A DNA stretch of 11,318 nt, taken from a virus (lineage: Duplodnaviria; Heunggongvirae; Uroviricota; Caudoviricetes). The DNA is taken from positions 1 to 11,318 of IMG/VR virus record IMGVR_UViG_2778261301_000003. One strand, 5' to 3'. Shown in pieces: positions 1 to 11,318 of this stretch. A program made the translations under genes and the position numbers. How positions within the stretch are numbered: position 1 is the first letter of the stretch; every line of letters begins with the position of its first letter. Under the pieces are notes generated by a model, which saw only the letters and a list, made by a program, of their open reading frames with translations, searched no databases and had not been told where the DNA came from.

Positions 1-78
1 ATGCTTCCATCGGAAACGATGATCTGGCAGCCTGAGTTCACAGATAAAACACTCTCCAGGAAACCCGGGGCGGTTCAT
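1..78 (-). CDS. Hypothetical protein, 5' portion only (gene continues beyond window start)
   Basis: Reverse-strand ATG at 78-76 in frame to the window edge (MNRPGFPGECFICELRLPDHRFRWKH...), with a weak AAGG Shine-Dalgarno 5 nt upstream. Only 26 codons are visible. Confidence 0.25.
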   Translation of the reverse strand, partial: MNRPGFPGECFICELRLPDHRFRWKH

Positions 79-150
79 TACGCCTTGCTCCATCTTCCGC
101 CATATCGGCATGAATAAGGTCTGCGAGTGTGCTCACATTCACCTCTCCAG

Positions 151-333
151 TTACATTGGTTTTGTAATGTTGCTAGTCATCTTGCGAATAAAAAGATGCG
201 TAAGTAGCCTTGCTTCCCACATGTAAATCTCTTCAAGGCGAGATAAATCTACGAACACCGGACCTTTGTAATCTGGTCTTGATGCCCTTATGTATGAGCT
301 AATAGTTTGTGCATCTTGCTCGTCCAGATTCAT
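151..333 (-). CDS. Hypothetical small protein (60 aa) downstream of ren
   Basis: Track ORF 151..351 begins at a TTG; the first ATG is at 333-331, preceded by a purine-rich SD (GGGGGAGAGGGAAG). No recognisable motif. Confidence 0.4.
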   Translation of the reverse strand: MNLDEQDAQTISSYIRASRPDYKGPVFVDLSRLEEIYMWEARLLTHLFIRKMTSNITKPM

Positions 334-349
334 GACTTCCCTCTCCCCC

Positions 350-381
350 AAATAAAAAGGCCTGCGATTACCAGCAGGCCT
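350..381 (-). terminator. Intrinsic terminator after ren (tR2-like position)
   Basis: Minus-strand hairpin with stem GGCCTGC/GCAGGCC (359-365 and 374-380) and an 8-nt loop, followed on the minus strand by a U-rich tract (A-run 350-358 on the plus strand). Confidence 0.45.
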
Positions 382-406
382 GTTATTAGCTCAGTAATGT
401 AGATGG

Positions 407-697
407 TCATTGCCTTACCTCCATAAGCGCCCTATTAATAAACGCCGTCATTGGATTTGCACATCCCCACCCCGTACCATCTGGATTTCTTTTAATTGGC
501 TCCTTCTTCACTTTGCGTTTTGCATAAATAACCGTCTTCCACTTACGCTCAACAACACTCAAATGCCCTTGTTTCACCATATGCCTTGCTGCTTGAGCGA
601 TTCTGTTATTTGGTATTCCTGTGATCAGTGCTAATTCATGTGGGGAGAATTGTTCATGAGTTTTCAGATATTCCAGGATGATTTCTTTTCCAGTCAC
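407..697 (-). CDS. ren: Ren-like protein (96 aa)
   Basis: Same length as lambda Ren and a similar N-terminus (MTGKE.II.YL.TH...) from memory; located immediately downstream of the replication genes, with its start overlapping the upstream gene's stop (694-697). Confidence 0.55.
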   Translation of the reverse strand: MTGKEIILEYLKTHEQFSPHELALITGIPNNRIAQAARHMVKQGHLSVVERKWKTVIYAKRKVKKEPIKRNPDGTGWGCANPMTAFINRALMEVRQ

Positions 698-1587
698 GAT
701 CTGCTCCTGTAACTATCCCATGTAAACGCAAGAGTGCACCCGCCGCCATCATTCATTCTGTCAATAACACGCTCACCAATGAATGCCGAAAGTTCATCTT
801 TGCTCTGATTACTAATCAGGATTGTTGGCTTCATGTATTCATATCTGGTGTTGATAATTTCGAACATGATTAGCTTTTCAGCATCACTGCCGAACTGCAC
901 GCCAACCTCATCGATTATTAACAAGTCAGGATGCGTAAATTGCCTAATGACTTCTTCTTCAGTTCTGGTTGCGGCCTTAGACCATGTTGATTTGTACTCT
1001 CTGGCAATTTTCAACGCAGTGGTAAATATCACAGAGCTTTGATGCTCGATAATGGCGTGCCTAGCGATAGCCAGTGCAAGATGGTTCTTTCCAGTTCCAG
1101 GCTTACCACACATGACCAGTCCGCCACCTTTTTGAAGGCGTTCAGGCCACTTACAGGCATATGCCTGGCATACCTTAAGAACTCGCTTTGCATCATCGTT
1201 AACAGGCTCATAATTCTGAAGAGTGCAATTTTTGAACCTCTCTGGAATATTGAGAGAATTCAACAAGTATTCAATTTTTGATTGTCTTGCTCTTTGTTCT
1301 GCCTGCTCACGTTCAATCTCTTTCTTACGAATTTTCTCCTCAAGGCACTGTGGGCACTCAGATTTACTTGAAGTAATTCTTTTTCCTGAGATGGTCAGAT
1401 ATTTCTCATAGGAAGTATATTTACCGTGTTTCTCGCACTCTTCCACTGTGCTGGTAACTGACATTCCATCTGATGCTGATCCAATTTTGCTAAACTCAAG
1501 TTTCTGTTTCAGATCAGAAATGTCATTGATTTTTGAGTCTACAAGTTGCCTTTGCAGTGCCAGATTGTAACCATTTGTCGTATTCAT
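694..1587 (-). CDS. DnaC-like replicative helicase loader (IstB/DnaC-type AAA+ ATPase), occupying the lambda P slot
   Basis: Walker A GKPGTGKNHLA and Walker B LLIIDEVG are visible, with a Cys-containing N-terminal region (CEKHG...CPQC). Start chosen at ATG 1587 with AGGAG SD 5 nt upstream and 2 nt after the O stop; the track's upstream ATG at 1605 lies inside O. Confidence 0.8.
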   Translation of the reverse strand: MNTTNGYNLALQRQLVDSKINDISDLKQKLEFSKIGSASDGMSVTSTVEECEKHGKYTSYEKYLTISGKRITSSKSECPQCLEEKIRKKEIEREQAEQRARQSKIEYLLNSLNIPERFKNCTLQNYEPVNDDAKRVLKVCQAYACKWPERLQKGGGLVMCGKPGTGKNHLALAIARHAIIEHQSSVIFTTALKIAREYKSTWSKAATRTEEEVIRQFTHPDLLIIDEVGVQFGSDAEKLIMFEIINTRYEYMKPTILISNQSKDELSAFIGERVIDRMNDGGGCTLAFTWDSYRSRS

Positions 1588-1589
1588 AT

Positions 1590-2435
1590 TCACTCCTGCG
1601 CCCATGAAGGCATTTCAGTTTGTCCGTAATCTTTGGCGGCAAAGTTTTCCTGCATAGCTCGATGCTGCGGCCTCGGTTGAGGTTTCCCCTTTGGAGTCTT
1701 GGGCTCAAAAATCCCCTGCCAACCACTGGCGATGCTCTGGTTTATAATTTCTTCAGGTGTATATCCCTTCTCCAGACTTCTGCTTAGAACGTTGATAGCC
1801 TGAGTGACACTTTGCTTAGACTTGATCGACTTACCTATCTCCTTGCGATAGGTAACCCACGACAACCATGTTTCTGCTGATAACCAATCAGGCAACTCTG
1901 TTTCTAGCGGGTCGAACTTCTGAGAAACTTTTTTGGGGGATATAGGGGGTTTATTAATATTTTCTTTTGTCTTTAAAGAATGTCTTTTGTGTGTCTCTAA
2001 CTTCGAGACATTGAGTGTCTCTAATTTGGAGACATTTTTTGTCTCTAACTTCGAGACAAAGTTGCTAACTTGGAGACACTTGCTGAATTGCCACGCAGAT
2101 ACCTCCCTGTTTACACCGATTTTATTTCCATCCATAAACAGGCAATTCATTGAAATCAGTTCTTTTTTAGCCTTGTTAACATTCTGCCTTGACAGTCCTG
2201 TTAACTGAGCAATTTGCTCATCGGCTATTCGATCTGTTTTCTTATTGAAGCCATATGTTTTCCGGACGTAGGCCAGCATAACTTTCAACTGGCGAGCGGT
2301 TAAATCGGCACTTGCGATAGCTTCCAGCAGCTCGTTAGCGAATCTGGTGTAACCATCATCGATATCAGCCACTCTTAGCTCCTGTTCGGCAAAGTTACCT
2401 CTGCCGAAGTTGAGTATTTTTGCTGTATTTGTCAT
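1590..2435 (-). CDS. O: Replication initiator protein O (lambda O family)
   Basis: N-terminus MTNTAKILNFGRGNFA... matches lambda O from memory; the coding region contains the ori iterons (translated as repeated VSKLET) and an adjacent AT-rich tract, as in lambda ori. Confidence 0.85.
   Translation of the reverse strand: MTNTAKILNFGRGNFAEQELRVADIDDGYTRFANELLEAIASADLTARQLKVMLAYVRKTYGFNKKTDRIADEQIAQLTGLSRQNVNKAKKELISMNCLFMDGNKIGVNREVSAWQFSKCLQVSNFVSKLETKNVSKLETLNVSKLETHKRHSLKTKENINKPPISPKKVSQKFDPLETELPDWLSAETWLSWVTYRKEIGKSIKSKQSVTQAINVLSRSLEKGYTPEEIINQSIASGWQGIFEPKTPKGKPQPRPQHRAMQENFAAKDYGQTEMPSWAQE
1992..2078. repeat. Origin of replication iterons (4 copies, about 24-bp period) inside the O gene
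   Basis: TGTCTCTAACTTCGAGACA at 1992-2010 and 2040-2058, TGTCTCTAATTTGGAGACA at 2016-2034, and a degenerate fourth copy at 2060-2078. Each has inverted-repeat arms TGTCTC/GAGACA. An AT-rich tract at 1921-1991 lies on the O-downstream side. Confidence 0.7.
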
Positions 2436-2447
2436 AATGACTCCTGT

Positions 2448-2524
2448 GGATTGATCCAGTAATGACCTCAGAACTCCATCTGGATTTGATCAGAACGCTC
2501 GGTTGCCGCCGGGCGTTTTTTATT
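2448..2524 (+). ncRNA. oop: oop antisense RNA with pO promoter upstream and intrinsic terminator at its 3' end
   Basis: Sequence TTGATCCAGTAATGACCTCAGAACTCCATCTGGATTTGATCAGAACGCTCGGTTGCCGCCGGGCGTTTTTTATT is near-identical to lambda oop RNA from memory. Candidate pO -35 TTGAGT (2410-2415) and -10 CATAAT (2433-2438); the RNA is antisense to the cII 3' end. Confidence 0.7.
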
Positions 2525-2764
2525 GGTGAGTCCATCAAGCGCATACTTAAAAGCCCTGCTAATCGGACTGATATCTGATGCCATTCCGAAAGCACACAAG
2601 ACCGAAGCAATAAATCTCCAGTCCGTTCTGCTTATCTTCGATTCATGACAGCCAATCATCTTTGCCAGACCGCGCTGGGTAAGCGTTGACAGGTTGATGA
2701 GTAAATCTGTTTCTGCGCGATCAACGTCGCGCTGTGATAGTTTGCTGTAACTTGTTTGTTCCAT
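2468..2764 (-). CDS. cII: cII-family transcriptional activator (98 aa)
   Basis: C-terminus LTNKKRPAATERSDQIQMEF matches the lambda cII C-terminus from memory; the N-terminal HTH region (QRGLAKMIGCHESKISR) is divergent. Position between cro and O. Confidence 0.75.
   Translation of the reverse strand: MEQTSYSKLSQRDVDRAETDLLINLSTLTQRGLAKMIGCHESKISRTDWRFIASVLCAFGMASDISPISRAFKYALDGLTNKKRPAATERSDQIQMEF
2742..2755 (+). promoter_or_regulatory. pRE-like cII-binding motif (TTGC-N6-TTGT) overlapping the cII start region
   Basis: TTGCTGTAACTTGT on the plus strand resembles the TTGC-N6-TTGC cII box of lambda pRE, and is oriented to drive antisense-cro/cI transcription. The second half-site is imperfect. 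Confidence 0.35.
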
Positions 2765-2828
2765 TTCTTACTATTTCCATAGGTAAATAATCACTAATAC
2801 TCATCTTTCGATGAGTGATTAATTAGTT

Positions 2829-2863
2829 ACCGCGTTGTCGGCGGTGCAGATTGATAAAGAGCG
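2829..2863 (-). promoter_or_regulatory. nutR (boxA plus P22-type boxB)
   Basis: On the minus strand, boxA CGCTCTTTAT (2854-2863) is followed 8 nt later by the hairpin ACCGCCGACAACGCGGT (2829-2845) with a GACAA loop, between cro and cII. Confidence 0.6.
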
Positions 2864-2870
2864 GTGTTAC

Positions 2871-3080
<210 letters not shown>

Positions 3081-3097
3081 TTAGTACATGCAATCAT

Positions 3098-3161
3098 TAT
3101 CACCGCCAGAGGTAAAATAGTCAACACGCACGGTGTTAGATATTTATCCCTTGCGGTGATA
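3098..3161. promoter_or_regulatory. OR operator cluster (OR1, OR2, OR3) with divergent pR and pRM
   Basis: TATCACCGCCAGAGGTA (3098-3114), CAACACGCACGGTGTTA (3122-3138) and TATCCCTTGCGGTGATA (3145-3161) match lambda OR1/OR2/OR3. The cI ATG at 3172 sits right at the expected pRM leaderless start. Confidence 0.9.
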
Positions 3162-3168
3162 GATTTAA

Positions 3169-3885
<717 letters not shown>

Positions 3886-3892
3886 CACGTAA

Positions 3893-4330
3893 ATGATTAA
3901 AGAACGTATTTCTTATATCATTCCGATTGCGATGGATGAAGGCAACCCCGTAACTCCAGTTCTTATCTATGAAATGGATAAAGACTCCCATGAAGTGGAT
4001 CTGTCATTTGGCGCTTTTTTTATCGGCCTTAAGGCTACAAAAAAATATTCCATAGGCATTGAGGTTTTCAATGCTCAAGAAATACCGATACCAATTGACA
4101 CAAAACTGTACTCCAACCATAAGTTTTTTACGGTAGCAGAAGCCAACGATGGAGAAACCATCGTATCAACTTCTATGAGAATTAACTTCCCAAGGGTGAA
4201 AATTATCAAGCCTGGGATATTCGAAGTTAGAGCATCACTGGTTAATCCTGAGAAAGGCGAAGTAATTGATGTAAAAAGTTCGTTTTTTGACGTGAAGATA
4301 ACAGGATCAGTTCGCGATGAGTTTAGATAA
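3893..4330 (+). CDS. Hypothetical soluble protein (145 aa) in the rexA-equivalent position
   Basis: ATG 7 nt after the cI stop with no obvious SD, suggesting coupling to cI translation. No TM segment or signal peptide; hydrophobic/polar alternation suggests a beta-rich fold. Not RexA-like by size (145 vs 279 aa); no recognisable catalytic motif. Confidence 0.6.
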   Translation: MIKERISYIIPIAMDEGNPVTPVLIYEMDKDSHEVDLSFGAFFIGLKATKKYSIGIEVFNAQEIPIPIDTKLYSNHKFFTVAEANDGETIVSTSMRINFPRVKIIKPGIFEVRASLVNPEKGEVIDVKSSFFDVKITGSVRDEFR

Positions 4331-4688
4331 CAAGGTTGCTCAGCTTCGTCCAAATCAAAACATATCTCGCCCAATTGGACACTATTCCACTGATGATGCA
4401 TACTCTCGGCATGGTGGAGGAAACGGCGGAGGTAACATGCTTGAGGCTAGAGTTGCAAAGCTAGAGTCTGATGTTGAATACATCAAGCGCGATCTCGCTG
4501 AGGTAAAGTCAGATATAAAATCTGTTGATTCTCGTCTGTCAGGTATTGAGACAAGCATTAGCTCAGCAAAAACCACCATTAAGGCATCTGCGGTCGTTGT
4601 CAGTTTCGTGTTCGCATTTTGCGCCTACATTTTTGGAAGTTATGTATCCAAAATCCTTGATGCCTTAAACGGACTCGTTCTTAAGTAA
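4317..4688 (+). CDS. Hypothetical tail-anchored membrane protein (123 aa): Gly-rich N-terminus, coiled coil, single C-terminal TM helix
   Basis: ATG at 4317 overlaps the upstream stop (4328-4330). An alternative start at ATG 4437 with GGAGG 4 nt upstream would give 83 aa. Heptad-like segment LEARVAKLESDVEYIKRDLAEVKSDIKSVDSRL, then hydrophobic AVVVSFVFAFCAYIFGSYV. Architecture resembles XhlA-like or holin-like small membrane proteins (from memory, unverified). Confidence 0.6.
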   Translation: MSLDNKVAQLRPNQNISRPIGHYSTDDAYSRHGGGNGGGNMLEARVAKLESDVEYIKRDLAEVKSDIKSVDSRLSGIETSISSAKTTIKASAVVVSFVFAFCAYIFGSYVSKILDALNGLVLK

Positions 4689-4694
4689 CACACA

Positions 4695-4721
4695 ACCCGG
4701 CCTCAGTGCCGGGTTTTCTTT
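4695..4721 (+). terminator. Intrinsic terminator closing the cI operon (t-imm equivalent)
   Basis: Stem ACCCGGC/GCCGGGT (4695-4701 and 4708-4714) with loop CTCAGT, followed by TTTTCTTT. Confidence 0.7.
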
Positions 4722-4872
4722 GCCTCTCGATCCCCCCCTCCCAACAACACATAACCATTTGTATTTATTGGAAAACTAATAGATACAACTTGCTAAACAG
4801 TGCAATTCTGATCCCTCACCTACCTAACAATTCACCCCTGCAAAAAATAAATCCATATAAAAAACATACAGA

Positions 4873-4935
4873 TAACCATCTGCGGTGATAAATTATCTCT
4901 AGCGGTGTTGACACAAATACCACTAGCGGTGATAC
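4873..4935 (+). promoter_or_regulatory. OL operator cluster (OL3, OL2, OL1) with pL promoter reading rightward
   Basis: AACCATCTGCGGTGATA (4873-4889), TATCTCTAGCGGTGTTG (4893-4909) and TACCACTAGCGGTGATA (4917-4933) are lambda-type 17-mers. pL -35 TTGACA (4907-4912) and -10 GATACT (4930-4935), followed by the conserved ACATCAGCAGGACGC start region. Confidence 0.9.
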
Positions 4936-4981
4936 TAAACACATCAGCAGGACGCTGGAAGCCAAACGGAACAGATTGGCA

Positions 4982-5016
4982 TGCTCTTTAACTTCGATGG
5001 GGCGCTGACAAAGCGC
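4982..5016 (+). promoter_or_regulatory. nutL (boxA plus P22-type boxB)
   Basis: boxA TGCTCTTTAAC (4982-4992) and boxB hairpin GCGCTGACAAAGCGC (5002-5016) with a GACAA pentaloop, in the pL leader upstream of N. Confidence 0.7.
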
Positions 5017-5135
5017 AAACAGATACCAAACGAGATGGGTTTGGCGGTGATGTGAATTGCAGATGCAACGACAGCAACCAGAAGATCAGCACCTGGCGCA
5101 TCACCACCAAAGCCATTTCACATGAGGAAAACATC

Positions 5136-5444
5136 ATGACGGTAATCGTGTACGGAAAATCAACATTTGCAGGAAATGCCAAAACTCGCCGTCATGAGCG
5201 GCGCAGAAAGCTGGCTATCGAGCGTGATTCCATCTGCAACATCATCGATTCGATCTTCGGCACAGACAGTGAGGAAGATGTTCAGGAAGAACCGAGAAAG
5301 CGTTTAAGTCTTTCTGAAAAAGCAATATCACTCGGCATCATCAGTAAATCAAATACAGATGCGAATGGCGGAAGCGTTTGTTTGCCTGAAGTTGCACTGT
5401 ATGCTGCTGGTTACAGGTCAATGAAATCAATTACGGCGAGATAG
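5136..5444 (+). CDS. N: Antitermination protein N, P22 type (102 aa)
   Basis: N-terminal arginine-rich motif GNAKTRRHERRRKLAIERD matches the P22 N boxB-binding peptide (from memory). Start at ATG 5136 with AGGAA SD; the track's 130-aa ORF from 5052 runs into the nut leader and is rejected. Confidence 0.85.
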   Translation: MTVIVYGKSTFAGNAKTRRHERRRKLAIERDSICNIIDSIFGTDSEEDVQEEPRKRLSLSEKAISLGIISKSNTDANGGSVCLPEVALYAAGYRSMKSITAR

Positions 5445-5446
5445 AA

Positions 5447-5713
5447 ATGACTAGCAAACAAGTATCATATAAATGCTATTGCCCTTTATGTGGAAGAAAA
5501 TTCAGCGCCAAGGCAGCATGGAAGCATATCAATGATTATCATCCAAAAGCATCAGAACGTGAGTTGATGATGATAAGAGATGTAAAACGAGAAAAAATTT
5601 CTTTCGCAACAAAGCCACTAAACGCCAACAAAAACGCAATATTGTATCAAATGCATCGTTCAAGTGGTCCAGATTATTCTGGAGGGCTTCCATCTCTTGG
5701 AAAGAAAAAATAA
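5447..5713 (+). CDS. Small zinc-finger protein (88 aa), C2H2-like
   Basis: Motif C-x2-C-x11-H-x4-H (CPLCGRKFSAKAAWKHINDYH) near the N-terminus; starts 2 nt after the N stop; basic C-terminal tail. Confidence 0.55.
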   Translation: MTSKQVSYKCYCPLCGRKFSAKAAWKHINDYHPKASERELMMIRDVKREKISFATKPLNANKNAILYQMHRSSGPDYSGGLPSLGKKK

Positions 5714-5733
5714 CCACGCTCATGCTGGTTTTT
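5712..5733 (+). terminator. Possible weak intrinsic terminator (tL1-like) after the zinc-finger gene
   Basis: Imperfect hairpin AACCACGC/GCTGGTT (one bulge) with loop TCAT, followed by TTT, immediately after the stop at 5711-5713. Confidence 0.3.
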
Positions 5734-5846
5734 AATGACATAAATAACCGTATTTACTACCGCAAGCCACGCAGTGAAATGGGTGTGACTTGTGTTGGTC
5801 GCCAGAAAATGAAATTAGGCAGCAAACCACTTATTTGAGGTGAGAT

Positions 5847-6212
5847 ATGGAAGAACAAGCAAACAAGATTCTCGTAGAACTACTGCAAAAAGCCAGTAAT
5901 GGAATAGACGCGGCTGTTTCATTTAGCCAGGCACAGATTCCTGATGTCATCCATCAGCTTTTGATGTGGCACGCCGTATCATCAGCTGGAATTCAGGCTA
6001 TCTGTGTATTGGTGATTATAGCGTGTGTTTATCTGATGATTTTTGCATGGAATAAAGGAGATGATGCAGATATTGTTATTTTATCACTACTTGTCACATC
6101 AGGAATAGCGATTACTTCTATTGTTGTTTTCTTCAATTATTTCGACTGGCTGAAAATTTGGCTTGCTCCAAAACTTTACCTTATCGAATATGCCGCATCA
6201 TTGGTTAAGTAA
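5847..6212 (+). CDS. Small inner-membrane protein (121 aa, two predicted TM helices)
   Basis: GAGGTGAG SD upstream of ATG 5847; hydrophobic segments AVSSAGIQAICVLVIIACVYLMIFAW and IVILSLLVTSGIAITSIVVFFNYF. Confidence 0.6.
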   Translation: MEEQANKILVELLQKASNGIDAAVSFSQAQIPDVIHQLLMWHAVSSAGIQAICVLVIIACVYLMIFAWNKGDDADIVILSLLVTSGIAITSIVVFFNYFDWLKIWLAPKLYLIEYAASLVK

Positions 6213-6265
6213 TTTCATGCCGCATAGTCGGCCTTTATTTTTGGCATAAACAATATGGGGTAAAA

Positions 6266-6592
6266 ATGAAAGTTTTAATGGTTTATGAAAATGTTCCAGA
6301 GTCGACTGAAATCTATATTTTTGATGCCAATGAAGATGAAGTTAACGATTTGAAATTGTCTCACGGCAATTACACAAATGCTAATTGTGATGAAAGTATC
6401 GAAAAAGCACTATCACGTGTTCTTGTCAGAATTAGTGATCCAGAACATTGTGATGATGATTGGCTTTCTTATTGTGGAGCGGTAAAAACTGATGCAGGAA
6501 AATGGAGTAAAAGTAAAGTTGATAACTCAACTCCAATCATTATGAAAGATAGTGATATTGAAATGGTAATAATAACCGGAATGATTATGTAG
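6266..6592 (+). CDS. Hypothetical acidic protein (108 aa)
   Basis: ORF with a G-rich SD; about 21 Asp/Glu versus about 10 Lys/Arg by hand count; AT-rich codon usage typical of moron genes. Confidence 0.5.
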   Translation: MKVLMVYENVPESTEIYIFDANEDEVNDLKLSHGNYTNANCDESIEKALSRVLVRISDPEHCDDDWLSYCGAVKTDAGKWSKSKVDNSTPIIMKDSDIEMVIITGMIM

Positions 6593-6608
6593 GCTGCGAA
6601 TAAGCACT

Positions 6609-6636
6609 GTGTATTCATTCAAACGAGTGAATACAC
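6609..6636 (+). other. Perfect 9-bp inverted repeat (GTGTATTCA-N10-TGAATACAC) in the intergenic region
   Basis: Arms at 6609-6617 and 6628-6636; no U-tract follows. Could be an RNA hairpin (processing site or pause) or a dimeric protein-binding site. Confidence 0.35.
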
Positions 6637-6737
6637 GGAGCAATGTCGCTCGTAACTAAACAGGAGCCGACTTGTTCTGATTATTGGAAATCTTCTTTGC
6701 CCTCCAATGTGAGGGCAATTTTTTTGACGGAGGATAT

Positions 6738-7049
6738 ATGAAATTACGTGTCTGGCATATCCCGCAAGTACCTATGAAGCCGTTCATTGTAGAAGTGGCA
6801 AGTGTTGAAGAGGGTGTTCGCTTGATGGATGCACTGGCTGATTATGACGCCTTTCAGTATGACAACAACATCAAGCCTGACTACTGCAATGCTAACGGCC
6901 TTGAGATGTGGGATGAGAGCCTTACTGATGAAGATTTATCAGAGATGGAGCTTACGGATCGCTGGGTAGATTGGTACAGCGAATGCCAATGTTACGACGA
7001 CCCACGTAAATATATCGAAAGCCTGAAAGAAGAAACCTCAGCAGCCTGA
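6738..7049 (+). CDS. Hypothetical acidic protein (103 aa)
   Basis: Start chosen at ATG 6738 with GGAGG SD (track ORF starts earlier at 6684 without an SD); about 24 acidic versus about 10 basic residues; Cys pairs (CNANG, ECQC). Confidence 0.55.
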   Translation: MKLRVWHIPQVPMKPFIVEVASVEEGVRLMDALADYDAFQYDNNIKPDYCNANGLEMWDESLTDEDLSEMELTDRWVDWYSECQCYDDPRKYIESLKEETSAA

Positions 7050-7084
7050 GCGCGGATTTGACGCATACAAATTAAGGAGGATAT

Positions 7085-8053
7085 ATGAGTGAAGTAACAG
7101 ACTTAGTTGTTATTGAAAAAGCAAATGCAATGACTGTATTTCAGTCTGCAGACCAGATTGAAGAAATTCTCCAAAAGGTTGAACGTGAAGTTATGTCCTT
7201 TGTGCCTGATATCACAACGGCAAAGGGCAGAAAGGAGATCGCTTCTCTGGCGTATAAAGTTGCGCAGACGAAAACATATCTCGATGGTCTTGGCAAAGAC
7301 CTTGTTGCTGAACTGAAGGAAATTCCAAAGCTAATTGATGCTAACCGCAAGACAGTGCGTGATCGCCTTGATGAGCTGAAAGCCAAGGCGCGCCAGCCTC
7401 TTACTGATTATGAGGAGGAGCAGGCACGGATTAAAGCCGAAGAAGAAGCTAAGGCAGCAGCCGAAGCTCTCGCAAAGCAAATTGAGTCTGACCATGAAAT
7501 AGCGATTTTGATGGATCGCGAATTTGACCGCCAAAGAGAAGAGGCAAGACTCAAAGCGGAGCAGGAAAAGCGAGAGCATGAAGAACGCTTAAAAAGAGAA
7601 GCTGAAGAGAAAGCCAGAGCTGAAGCCGAAGCAAAGGCAAAAGCCGAAATTGAAGCAGCAGCAAGGCGAGAAGCAGAAGCTAAGGCAGCAGCGGAACGTG
7701 CAGAGCGTGAACGTATTGAAGCCGAGCAACGAGCACAGCGCGAAGCAAAAGAGGCAGCAGAACGAGCTGAAAGAGAAAAGCATGCGGCAATTGAAGCAGA
7801 ACGTCGTAAAGCACAGGAGGAGGCTGAACGAATCCGGCGCGAGGCTGAAGCAAAAGAGCAAGCCAGAATAGCAGAAGAAAAAAGAATCAAGGACGAAGAA
7901 GAGCGTAGAGCAAAGGATAAAGCTCACCGGAAAGAAGTAAATAACAAAATACTGGCTGACCTTATCAAGGTTGGCGCATCAGAAGATGTTGCTAAAAATA
8001 TCATAACAGCCATCGTAAAAGGCGAAGTATTCGCAACAAAAATAACCTACTAA
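7085..8053 (+). CDS. Hypothetical protein (322 aa) with a long Ala/Glu/Lys/Arg-rich helical repeat region
   Basis: Strong SD AAGGAGG; N-terminal domain of about 115 aa, a central low-complexity A/E/K/R-rich segment of roughly 170 aa (TolA domain II-like composition), and a C-terminal domain of about 40 aa. Confidence 0.7.
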   Translation: MSEVTDLVVIEKANAMTVFQSADQIEEILQKVEREVMSFVPDITTAKGRKEIASLAYKVAQTKTYLDGLGKDLVAELKEIPKLIDANRKTVRDRLDELKAKARQPLTDYEEEQARIKAEEEAKAAAEALAKQIESDHEIAILMDREFDRQREEARLKAEQEKREHEERLKREAEEKARAEAEAKAKAEIEAAARREAEAKAAAERAERERIEAEQRAQREAKEAAERAEREKHAAIEAERRKAQEEAERIRREAEAKEQARIAEEKRIKDEEERRAKDKAHRKEVNNKILADLIKVGASEDVAKNIITAIVKGEVFATKITY

Positions 8054-8077
8054 TAAAACCAACATAAGGAACCACCC

Positions 8078-8224
8078 ATGATTTACGCAATCGCGGGAGG
8101 CGCTCGCATGGGTGCCTTCCAATTAAATGAATCTTTACTTGAACGAATCACCCGTAAATTACGTGACGGATGGAAACGCCTTATCGACATACTTAATCAG
8201 CCAGGAGTTCCCAAAAATGGATAA
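8078..8224 (+). CDS. cIII: cIII protein (48 aa), anti-FtsH regulator of cII stability
   Basis: Translation MIYAIAGGARMGAFQLNESLLERITRKLRDGWKRLIDILNQPGVPKNG matches the lambda cIII core (ESLLERITRKLRDGWKRLIDILNQPGVPKNG) from memory; AAGGA SD. Below the 60-aa ORF-track cutoff, so found by hand. Confidence 0.85.
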   Translation: MIYAIAGGARMGAFQLNESLLERITRKLRDGWKRLIDILNQPGVPKNG

Positions 8225-8330
8225 AACACTTATGGCTATCCAGACTAAATTCACTATCGCCACTTTTATTGGCGATGAAAAGATGTTTCGTGAGGCCGTC
8301 GAAGCCTACAGGAAATGGAGGTCAAAATGA
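8217..8330 (+). CDS. kil: Kil-like small protein (37 aa)
   Basis: Starts inside the cIII stop region with AGGAG SD; MDKTLMAIQTKFTIATFIGDEKMFREAVEAY resembles lambda Kil as I recall it, and the position right after cIII is correct. Confidence 0.5.
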   Translation: MDKTLMAIQTKFTIATFIGDEKMFREAVEAYRKWRSK

Positions 8331-8515
8331 TTCCGGTAGAACTGGCGAAAACTCCAGAGTTAAGTCGATTAAAAAGAGAATATCACATTGCTGAGGCTCG
8401 TTACTGGCGTAAAGCGGGAGATAAATCAAAGAAACAACTTTGTTTATGGCAGGCACAAAGAGAGCGCATGAATGAGCGCGAGTTTCTTTCCCCCCCATCC
8501 AAATTACCATTCTGA
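8327..8515 (+). CDS. Hypothetical small basic protein (62 aa)
   Basis: ATG 8327 with GGAGG 5 nt upstream, overlapping the kil stop (ATGA); the track's upstream start at 8315 lacks SD spacing. Confidence 0.45.
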   Translation: MIPVELAKTPELSRLKREYHIAEARYWRKAGDKSKKQLCLWQAQRERMNEREFLSPPSKLPF

Positions 8516-8523
8516 GGCAAATT

Positions 8524-9204
8524 ATGGGAACTGCGACATTAATACTCGGTGAGTCTGGCACCGGAAAATCAACCAGCATGAGAAATATCAATCCAGAGGA
8601 AGCAATACTTATAAAACCAATAGGCAAGCCGCTTCCATTTAAATCAAAAGACTGGCTGGCATGGGATGCCAGAGCAAAAAAAGGAACCGTAGTTACCACT
8701 GACAAATGGGACGTAATAGTTGCCGTAATTAAGCGTGCTCACGAATACGGGAAAAGAATCGTTATTGTTGATGACTTCCAGTATGTGATGAGCAATGAGT
8801 TTATGCGCCGCTCAGAAGAAAAATCGTTTGATAAATTTACTGAGATAGGCCGCCACGCATGGGAGGTGATTAAGGCTGCACAGGATGCACCTGATGACCT
8901 GAGAGTCTATTTTCTTGCGCACACCGAAGAAACCCCTATGGGGCGCGTGAAAATGAAAACTATCGGCAAAATGCTGGACGAGAAAATCACTGTCGAAGGC
9001 ATGTTTACTATAGTTCTTCGCACTCTTACCCGCGATGACCAGTTCTTTTTCACCACGAAAAACAACGGTGCAGACACTGTTAAATCCCCAATGGGAATGT
9101 TTGATTCCAATGAGATTGATAACGATCTCTCTTTCGTCGATGCCACTGTTTGTGATTACTACGGCATCAATAATGTTCATCAAATTAAGGAAAACGCCGC
9201 ATGA
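8524..9204 (+). CDS. Sak4-like RecA-core ATPase (AAA_24-type), phage recombination protein
   Basis: N-terminal Walker A LILGESGTGKST and Walker B-like IVIVDD, about 226 aa; located where lambda has the Red genes and followed by an SSB-like gene. Confidence 0.6.
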   Translation: MGTATLILGESGTGKSTSMRNINPEEAILIKPIGKPLPFKSKDWLAWDARAKKGTVVTTDKWDVIVAVIKRAHEYGKRIVIVDDFQYVMSNEFMRRSEEKSFDKFTEIGRHAWEVIKAAQDAPDDLRVYFLAHTEETPMGRVKMKTIGKMLDEKITVEGMFTIVLRTLTRDDQFFFTTKNNGADTVKSPMGMFDSNEIDNDLSFVDATVCDYYGINNVHQIKENAA

Positions 9205-9788
9205 GCAACGTGATTTTTACTTATAACGAAGAAGCAGCACTGACCGCAGGGCAAGGTGGTTTTATTAACGAAACTGGCGCTCATATCATTACCATTACTG
9301 AAGCAGAACTAAAGCAATCAGAAAAAGGAGCCAAATTTATTGAGTTTTCTGGCGAATCCGACGACGGACGTAAAATCCAATATCTTAGCGTCTGTGTTCA
9401 GAAAAATGACGGAACGGAAAACAAATTTGGCGCAAATGTCGTTCACGCCATGATGGGGTGTGCCGGGATTGGACAATTAACGCAGCATATGGTTTCCGCC
9501 AGTAAATTTGTTGCTCCTGAGTTTCACGGAAAGAAAATCGGGTTAGTGCTACAGAAAGTATTAACCACAAACAAAAAGACTGGTGCAGACAGTTACCAGA
9601 TGGAAATACGCATCCCGTTTATTGCACAAACAGGCCAAACACTTAAAGAAAAGGCGGAAGGCAAGCAACCAGAAACTATCGCCAACATGGTTTCCAGCCT
9701 CAAAGATAAAGACAATCGCTCTAAAAACGTAAGCCAGAATCATGCAGATGATTATGGTTACAGCCAGAACGATTACCCTCCTTTCTGA
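9201..9788 (+). CDS. Putative ssDNA-binding protein partner of Sak4 (195 aa)
   Basis: ATGA overlap with the upstream gene; acidic C-terminal tail ending ...DDYGYSQNDYPPF, reminiscent of the acidic tails with terminal Phe in SSB and T7 gp2.5. The OB fold is not verifiable by eye. Confidence 0.4.
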   Translation: MSNVIFTYNEEAALTAGQGGFINETGAHIITITEAELKQSEKGAKFIEFSGESDDGRKIQYLSVCVQKNDGTENKFGANVVHAMMGCAGIGQLTQHMVSASKFVAPEFHGKKIGLVLQKVLTTNKKTGADSYQMEIRIPFIAQTGQTLKEKAEGKQPETIANMVSSLKDKDNRSKNVSQNHADDYGYSQNDYPPF

Positions 9789-9811
9789 TTATTGAAAATA
9801 AGGCTCCCATT

Positions 9812-10108
9812 ATGCCAGCGCCTCTGTATGGTGCGGATGACCCGCGCCGCTGTTCCGGCAATTCCGTATCGGAGGTGCTGGATAAATTCAGAAAAAACTA
9901 CGACCGGATAATGTCGCTACCGCAGGAAACGAAAGAGGAAAAGGAATTTCGCCATTGTATATGGCTTGCAGAGAAAGAAGAACGCGAGCGAATTTACCAG
10001 ACATCAATCCGACCATTCCGCAAAGCCACATATACCCACTTCCCTGAATATATCGACCCTCGCCTGCGTAATTACCGCTCACGCTATGGCGCTATCAGTA
10101 ATGACTGA
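9812..10108 (+). CDS. Hypothetical protein (98 aa)
   Basis: ATG-initiated ORF in the operon, weak AAGG SD; charged, Arg-rich, no recognisable motif. Confidence 0.45.
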
Positions 10109-10118
10109 GGAATTTACC

Positions 10119-10286
10119 ATGAGAGGACTTGCATACAATCCCGGCATTCTTCCGGCAGAAATGATTATTCGCCAACGAGTAAAGCCAATGCCATCGAGAG
10201 AGGAATTGCTTAAGAGAAATTCTTTTCCATCAGTGAATCAAAACAAATATCTGAATGCGATGTGGCGCAAAGGAGGCGACCAGTGA
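10119..10286 (+). CDS. Hypothetical small protein (55 aa)
   Basis: ATG 10119 with GAGG SD, starting 10 nt after the upstream stop; the longer track ORF from 9966 overlaps the previous gene. Confidence 0.35.
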
Positions 10287-11026
10287 GCAAAATTAACTAT
10301 CAGGCACTGCGTGAAGCGGCAGAGAAAGCCGGTGAAGATAAGTGGCAGGCTAAAAAAATAAATGGTGATTTTTTCGTTATTCGTCACGGTAGTTATACAA
10401 GACAGCATGGCTACACATCGTATCAACCCATTGCGGAGATTGATTGTAAGCCAGTCCGGGATTTTGTTGCCAAGGCTAATCCGGCTACCGTGCTGGCACT
10501 GCTGGATGAGAACGAAAGCATGTGCCGCGACCTCATTGCTCGCAATGGTGAGATTGAAGGGCTTCGAAAACTGGTTGCTGAACTTGAGGAGACAAAATCA
10601 AAACTCAACGAGCAGCGTGAATATTACGAAGGTGTTATCTCGGATGGAAGTAAGCGTATTGCTGAACTGGAGAAAAGCGAAGAGCAACTCATCAATGAGC
10701 GTGACCATGCTGAGTCTGCTTTAGCTGATATGTATTTTGCAGCAACCGGGGATAGGCCGGAGTGGAGTAACTGGTTCGGCTTTTCAGATGCCGTCGATAC
10801 CGTGGTTGACAGAATTGCTGATTTAGAAGCTAAACAGCCATCGCCAGCAGTACTGGAAGGACTGGTTAAAGCAGTGCGCTTCTATGAACAGGTAAAGTGT
10901 GAGAATCCGCCAGCTGAAACCGGAGCATGGAAGGACGCTGTTGACTGGGTGCTTAAAGAGGCTTGTCAGGCTGTAAATATTGGCACCAAAGGAGACGCAG
11001 GAGAGCAAAGCGATGAAAAACCGTAA
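10283..11026 (+). CDS. Ead/Ea22-like early-region protein (about 247 aa)
   Basis: GTG start at 10283 with AGGAGG SD 6 nt upstream, overlapping the previous stop. N-terminus [16 protein letters not shown]... and a central coiled coil resemble lambdoid Ea22-family proteins as I recall them. Confidence 0.5.
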
Positions 11027-11201
11027 AGCAAAGATTCTGTTAGCTCGCAGAAACGGTGTTGGGGTCTGGCGATGGTTGAGGATTAGCAACAGACGAGTGA
11101 GGTTGACGGGGTGTTGCGGGGTGATGGGGCACAGTTGTTGCAAAAAGCCCAGTGCGGCGCAAAACCGCTGGAAAAACCACTTGCGCACTAAAGGAGAGTG
11201 A
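11013..11201 (+). CDS. Possible small basic Cys-rich protein (62 aa)
   Basis: ATG 11013 with AGGAG SD, overlapping the previous stop; R/K-rich with CC-x5-CC; the coding region is G-rich. Could be non-coding. Confidence 0.3.
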   Translation: MKNRKAKILLARRNGVGVWRWLRISNRRVRLTGCCGVMGHSCCKKPSAAQNRWKNHLRTKGE

Positions 11202-11202
11202 T

Positions 11203-11318
11203 ATGGCGTTAACACACCGAGAACTCTGTCAGATTGCGTATAAGTTCCTTAAGCGCAACGGGTTCAAGGTTTGTTTTCATGACCGCTTTATAGCTGTAAC
11301 CAGTACCGGAGAACAGCC
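11203..11318 (+). CDS. Hypothetical protein, 5' portion only (continues past window end)
   Basis: ATG 11203 with AAAGGAGAG SD; open to the window edge (MALTHRELCQIAYKFLKRNGFKVCFHDRFIAVTSTGEQ...). Confidence 0.4.
   Translation, partial: MALTHRELCQIAYKFLKRNGFKVCFHDRFIAVTSTGEQ

Follow-up and report, generated by a model that had tools for sequence, protein, structure and literature searches.

The recombination module of phage HK620 is one of the prototype modules in a survey of lambdoid Rec modules, in which its single-strand-binding protein (SSB), HkaK, is called 'SSB-2' (2025 Genome Research, PMC12315714). A near-identical module lies in the virus record IMGVR_UViG_2778261301_000003, within a stretch of 11,318 nucleotides (positions 1 to 11,318 of the record) that is called the window here. 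The present analysis concerns two adjacent genes of this window, sak4 (the hkaL homologue) and ssb (the hkaK homologue), and the module around them.

The HK620 proteins have been characterised biochemically and genetically (Hutinet et al., 2018, PMC5928155). Purified HK620 Sak4 binds single-stranded DNA (ssDNA) only in the presence of ATP, does not bind double-stranded DNA, and anneals weakly and in an ATP-dependent manner. HkaK, a tetramer that binds ssDNA with an affinity about 4-fold below that of E. coli SSB, blocks annealing mediated by RecA while strongly stimulating annealing by Sak4. Sak4 joins SSB-coated ssDNA in a ternary complex, for which both ATP and the SSB's six C-terminal residues, NDYPPF, are needed. 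Deletion of this hexapeptide abolished the stimulation of Sak4 in vitro and lowered recombineering 10-fold. In oligonucleotide recombineering, sak4 alone gave a 15-fold increase and sak4 with ssb a 210-fold increase, which equals that of the whole module; abc2 contributed nothing in this assay.

Relationship to HK620 and distribution

The pair in the window almost certainly belongs to the early-left-operon recombination module (hkaM, sak4, ssb, abc2) of an HK620-type lambdoid phage or prophage, which would carry out RecA-independent annealing recombination. For this reading, identity, motifs, predicted folds and gene order come from the present analysis, the biochemistry was done by others on HK620 proteins that are 99% identical, and the role in the phage is inferred. 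A megablast search with positions 8100-10150 found 391 phage records. Phage APC_JM3.2 is 97.8% identical over the full query, and HK620 DNA is 98.1% identical across hkaM-hkaL-hkaK-hkaJ. The HK620 module (NC_002730) agrees with that of the window in its four genes and their order, in the ATGA overlaps of kil with hkaM and of sak4 with ssb, in the Walker motifs and in NDYPPF, and its proteins are 97-99.6% identical to those of the window. Sak4 differs from HkaL by the sole substitution D43E (225 of 226 residues identical), and there are two substitutions each in the SSB against HkaK (193/195, with the same tail), in Abc2 against HkaJ (96/98) and in the HkaM-like protein against HkaM (60/62). 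The RefSeq record of HK620 has the product of sak4 as Sak4-like ssDNA annealing protein, that of ssb as single strand DNA binding protein, that of abc2 as abc2 anti-RecBCD and that of hkaM as 'recombinase'. From this identity, the Sak4 of the window is expected to share the ATP-dependent ssDNA binding, annealing and recombineering shown for the HK620 protein one residue apart. Likewise, its SSB should bind ssDNA and stimulate the cognate Sak4 as the HK620 SSB does. The module is thus an already known one, of the HK620 Sak4-SSB type, and the pair itself, biochemically characterised earlier, is not novel.

The pair is widespread. It is carried by dozens of Stx-converting phages (Stx1a and Stx2a). 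Among 5,426 complete genomes of E. coli, 195 (about 3.6%) have it, in the chromosome every time. This location is consistent with prophages, and at H43, the one locus inspected, the pair lies among prophage genes. The E. coli copies are typically labelled by RefSeq as an 'ATP-binding protein' and a 'hypothetical' or 'DUF669' protein, and many Stx-converting phages bear these labels as well.

The two genes lie at 8524-9204 (226 residues) and 9201-9788 (195 residues), both on the + strand, and they overlap in an ATGA at 9201-9204 on the same strand (gccgcATGAgcaac). An initial annotation, made from the sequence alone, had given these open reading frames (ORFs), their coordinates, the overlap and the motif GESGTGKST in the first product, all correctly. 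The overlap is also annotated in HK620 (7073-7076 of the retrieved HK620 stretch) and in E. coli prophages. Codons that differ from HK620 are synonymous in 8 cases and non-synonymous in 1 in sak4, and the ratio is 11:2 in ssb. Because differences are mostly synonymous, the family is large and the same gene order recurs in six phages of other genera, ORFs 8524-9204 and 9201-9788 are real genes rather than chance ORFs. These six divergent phages come from Acinetobacter, Pseudomonas, Aeromonas, Moraxella, Roseburia and Stenotrophomonas, and in each of them a Sak4 homologue (41-56% identical) stands directly before an ORF of 200-235 residues. The ATGA overlap is not family-wide: four of the six have gaps of 10-25 nucleotides, the Moraxella phage alone has a 4-nucleotide overlap, and the overlap in the Roseburia phage is longer.

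The Sak4 ATPase and its SSB partner

The product of sak4 is a RecA-core-only ATPase and a single-strand annealing protein by family. It matches phrog_2872, 'Sak4-like ssDNA annealing protein', at E=3.9e-108 over residues 1-220 of 226, and Pfam AAA_24 at 30.2 bits, above the gathering score of 27; the match to the broader Sak4 family, PHROG 124, is merely E=1.7e-5. Both profile families that the initial annotation had proposed as a check, AAA_24 and Sak4, are therefore matched. Its Walker A motif or P-loop, GESGTGKST, occupies residues 9-17 (8548-8574, +), and Walker B, IVIVDD, residues 79-84 (8758-8775, +). G9, S11, G12, G14 and K15 of the former and D83 and D84 of the latter are invariant both across seven divergent homologues from phages and across 44 from the database. 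The family comprises at least 7,981 protein-database clusters, and one identical cluster has 1,036 member sequences. NCBIfam gave no match for any of the four module proteins.

An AlphaFold2 model built on a 44-sequence alignment of database homologues has a single domain (predicted local distance difference test, pLDDT, 88.3; predicted template modelling score, pTM, 0.87). Two aspartates of Walker B, D83 and D84, come directly after a predicted beta-strand at 79-82. The fold comparison puts the solved structure of a Sak4 nearest to the model, with RAD51D (13.6), RecA (13.3), RAD51C (12.9), KaiC, XRCC3, Rad51, DMC1 and RadB (11.3) next. Searching the PDB by sequence and by profile turned up a relative of neither the ATPase nor its partner, but P-loop-level noise and a geranyltranstransferase match judged spurious; the link to solved structures is made by the fold comparison alone. 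At the level of the model, this comparison confirms a RecA/Rad51-type fold and with it the description 'RecA-core' that had first been given to the protein. Lopes et al. (2010, PMC2896510) defined Sak4 as a short (<290 residues) ATPase core with neither RecA's C-terminal domain nor an extra domain of the DnaB type, and a 226-residue protein with a single-domain model agrees with this definition.

Such a fold raises the question of whether Sak4 is a mini-RecA, that is, a true strand-exchange recombinase needing conditions or partners that were missing in vitro. Proteins of the RecA/RAD51 family are its nearest fold neighbours, staphylococcal Sak4 forms filaments with ATPgammaS (PMC11846896), and sak4 with ssb in a recA host gave a modest, 20-fold rise in crossover recombinants (PMC5928155). 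We nevertheless consider strand exchange by this protein very unlikely. Whichever SSB was present, HK620 Sak4 gave no joint molecules or products in a strand-exchange assay on PhiX174, and it had no effect on RecA (PMC5928155), crossover in vivo remained 500-fold below that with RecA, and the single domain of 226 residues leaves out the secondary DNA-binding domain of RecA and Rad51.

Another reading goes back to the 2001 annotation of HK620, in which the two genes were named erf and abc1 by positional analogy with arf-erf-abc1-abc2 of P22. The ATPase would then be a generic P-loop NTPase without a role in recombination, and its partner an Abc1-like anti-RecBCD factor. The RefSeq labels 'ATP-binding protein' and 'hypothetical protein' are still in keeping with this, and the sole PADLOC match of the ATPase is to mad8 (E=2e-5). 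However, this weak match covers residues 1-23, is limited to the Walker A segment and was dismissed as motif-level. Neither protein has sequence similarity to P22 Erf or Abc1, and the reading is contradicted by the family and fold evidence as well as by the assays of ssDNA binding and annealing that have been published for the 99%-identical proteins, so that it retains practically no credibility. The old HK620 names arf, erf, abc1 and abc2 have been corrected, with Abc2 alone truly homologous to its P22 namesake (PMC5928155), and the names erf and abc1 were considered and rejected for the pair in the window too.

The partner is a phage SSB of the DUF669/N4-gp45 type ('SSB-2'). It matches phrog_743, 'single strand DNA binding protein', at E=2.4e-66, and its C-terminus reads ...HADDYGYSQNDYPPF (the tail is also given as ...DDYGYSQNDYPPF). 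The initial annotation had seen an acidic C-terminal tail ending in Phe as a hallmark of SSBs. The protein does end in NDYPPF (9768-9785, +), but the acidity of its tail is mild (three Asp and no Lys or Arg among the last 20 residues), and the functional determinant is the NDYPPF tip, which recruits Sak4 and is identical in HK620. Partner identity to the six divergent counterparts is 19-44%. Little is conserved in their alignment except an acidic motif at the C-terminus that ends in P-F and in most cases reads D-[DE]-[LIM]-P-F; the Stenotrophomonas phage has a variant of it.

The model of the partner, built with 45 sequences of database homologues, has a pLDDT of 83.3 and the order beta1-beta2-beta3, helix, beta4-beta5. 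It forms an oligonucleotide-binding (OB)-type barrel followed by a tail whose residues 177-195 are disordered, with pLDDT below 50, and in the fold comparison it is closest to PrgE and then to SSB, RPA and PriB. Lack of an OB fold had been named beforehand as grounds for giving up the SSB assignment, and a barrel of this type is what the model contains. An OB fold had been predicted for DUF669/N4-type SSBs (Kazlauskas et al., 2016, PMC4889955), and this prediction is thus borne out at model level. The initial annotation had also suggested families of the SSB and T7 gp2.5 kind. An SSB family was indeed matched, but the gp2.5-type identity was rejected in favour of the DUF669/N4-gp45 type. With no Pfam match and no sequence or profile match in the PDB, the partner falls outside both the canonical bacterial SSB family (PF00436) and the gp2.5 family. 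It is expected to work like an SSB, yet it is no member of either. Its homologues in the database carry the NCBI name 'DUF669 domain-containing protein', and Hutinet et al. use DUF669 as well. In the Pfam copy searched, neither the partner nor the six divergent partners had any match at E<=1, DUF669 included, and the DUF669 model may be narrower or absent in that release. For these seven proteins, the name and the model therefore disagree.

Identity as a DUF669-type protein brings in the possibility that the pair serves mainly replication. The SSB would be a replication SSB, and annealing by Sak4 would power either recombination-dependent replication or the switch from theta to sigma. Viral DUF669 proteins have been argued to be replication SSBs on the ground that the viruses with them have no further known SSB (Kazlauskas et al., 2016, PMC4889955), lambdoid Rec modules have been implicated in the theta-to-sigma switch (2025 Genome Research, PMC12315714), and HK620 SSB also stimulates strand exchange by RecA. 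However, the genes occupy the recombination slot of the pL operon, away from the O and DnaC-like replication genes at 694-2435, the E. coli SSB is at the phage's disposal, and the direct data are from annealing and recombineering assays only. A mainly replicative role thus seems possible but on balance doubtful; it overlaps with annealing recombination and does not exclude it.

Extent, action and surroundings of the module

The module spans 8327-10108 and not, as first delimited, 8524-9788. Its first gene is a small hkaM-like ORF of 62 residues (8327-8515, +; phrog_1723, E=2e-33), whose ATG overlaps the stop codon of kil in an ATGA at 8327-8330. The 'recombinase' label of this PHROG looks like a carry-over from the old 'arf' annotation. 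The protein ends in ...PSKLPF, and PS(E/K)LPF is kept in the 66%-identical gp37 of epsilon34 (3001-3189 of the retrieved epsilon34 stretch); a homologue in GE_vB_TR was left out of the comparison, as the record is unverified and has frame disruptions. In epsilon34, the gene heads another module, composed of a Rad52-type annealase, a canonical SSB, an Rv2179c-like exonuclease and Abc2. Unlike the partner in the window, the epsilon34 SSB matches PF00436 (E=2e-37). The ending PS(E/K)LPF resembles the tail tips of SSBs (IPF/PPF), and the gene accompanies both Sak4-type and Rad52-type modules. It is conceivable, though unlikely, that the HkaM-like protein mimics an SSB tail and competes for or redirects proteins that bind such tails, either clients of the host SSB or the phage annealase.

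The last gene is abc2 (the hkaJ homologue; 9812-10108, +), directly 3' of ssb, which encodes a P22-type anti-RecBCD protein. Its product matches PF11043 (Anti-RecBCD_p2) at E=4.3e-62, its residues 1-98 aligning with positions 1-97 of the 97-position profile, and phrog_656 at E=8e-57. The C-terminal part (10119-10286, in frame and ATG-started) of an ORF at 9966-10286 (+) sits where HK620 has HkaI (DUF2737), just past abc2. No Gam, Bet or Exo homologue was found in the window by Pfam and PHROG scans of the 20 ORFs judged likely genes. The initial statement that no Gam-like gene is visible is literally true, but functionally it misleads: with abc2 as a RecBCD modifier, the module holds a functional counterpart of Gam. 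Its other claim, a non-Red recombination module in the slot of gam-bet-exo, stands, since Red homologues are lacking and the pair is flanked by cIII (8078-8224, +) and kil (8127-8330, +) on one side and an Ead/Ea22-like gene (10262-11026, PF13935) on the other, as gam-bet-exo are in lambda.

The module may work as follows. Sak4 would bind ssDNA only with ATP and anneal complementary single strands, weakly when alone. The co-translated SSB, presumably a tetramer with a diverged OB fold, would coat ssDNA and expose its NDYPPF tip, and this tip would recruit ATP-bound Sak4 to the SSB-ssDNA complex and so strongly stimulate annealing. Abc2 would bind and modify the host RecBCD, the presumed source of the resected ends that lambda obtains from Exo and Gam. 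The net function would be RecA-independent single-strand-annealing recombination in lytic growth, and probably also recombination-dependent replication and genome repair at that stage, a role in replication being plausible.

The ORF list and the Pfam and PHROG scans mark the window as the early region of a lambdoid phage or prophage. On the - strand lie a DnaC/IstB-like loader (694-1605), an O-type replication protein (1590-2435), cII (2468-2764) and cro (2871-3071, Pfam Cro), and on the + strand a lambda-type cI repressor (3172-3885), the N antiterminator (5052-5444) and a superinfection-exclusion gene of the P22 gene-17 type (6684-7049). The region is strongly mosaic, and any one phage record covers at most 37% of the window in a single place. 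Lambda-like cI and cro, the N peptide, a P22-like gene 17, the HK620-like Rec module and the pair of O and DnaC-like replication genes are combined. In contrast to the module itself, the surroundings are unlike those of HK620 in their lambda-type cI/cro, gene-17-type gene, DnaC-like loader and a 322-residue ORF between gene 17 and cIII (7085-8053, +). This ORF has a long coiled-coil centre rich in Glu, Ala, Lys and Arg and no counterpart in HK620; it matches phrog_1376 and phrog_21365, two PHROGs with no assigned function, with zero matches in Pfam, NCBIfam and PADLOC. Two further ORFs (3893-4330 and 4317-4688, +) lie directly 3' of cI, where lambda has rexA and rexB. The second has a weak, sub-threshold XhlA-like match and a predicted C-terminal hydrophobic segment, and PADLOC matched neither. 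Possibly, the two ORFs form a cassette for exclusion or defence that is encoded by the prophage.

As a discovery, the locus has little value, being a textbook-level lambdoid module with published genetics and biochemistry and with a cryo-EM structure of a relative. Its practical value lies in annotation, as it is safe to give the genes the new names Sak4 annealase and cognate SSB. In addition, the window is an illustration of mosaicism in lambdoid phages, with an HK620-type Rec module next to a lambda-type immunity region to which it is joined.

Comparison with other recombination systems

Known Sak4 proteins include those of Staphylococcus phage 52A (PDB 8rc5; PMC11846896), lactococcal phage phi31 and Pseudomonas PA73 (Lopes et al., 2010, PMC2896510). 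The Sak4 of the window belongs to PHROG 2872 and is 14% identical to the staphylococcal protein in a structural alignment, and the hosts are of different phyla.

For the partner, the fold neighbour PrgE of the Enterococcus plasmid pCF10 (PDB 8s4s/8s4t; PMC11137577) is 11-13% identical and has no sequence-profile match. PrgE binds double- as well as single-stranded DNA in the form of a filament, and its N-terminal tail mediates oligomerisation, whereas HK620 SSB is a tetramer and acts through its C-terminal tail. A minor possibility is that PrgE, from a plasmid, and the phage SSBs of the DUF669 type belong to a single structural family; if so, PrgE would gain the phage relatives that its authors could not find. 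E. coli SSB and T7 gp2.5 resemble the partner in having an OB-type barrel and a flexible tail with an acidic motif and Phe, by which partner proteins are recruited. The tail tip is DDDIPF in E. coli SSB and NDYPPF in the window.

The Red system of lambda occupies the same slot 3' of cIII/kil in the pL operon and does the same overall job, namely RecA-independent annealing recombination together with control of RecBCD. However, the two systems are non-homologous. The annealase in the window is an ATP-dependent protein of the RecA fold and not a Rad52-fold ring, and the module needs an SSB of its own and has no dedicated exonuclease. Lambda blocks RecBCD with Gam, and in this module Abc2 modifies it instead.
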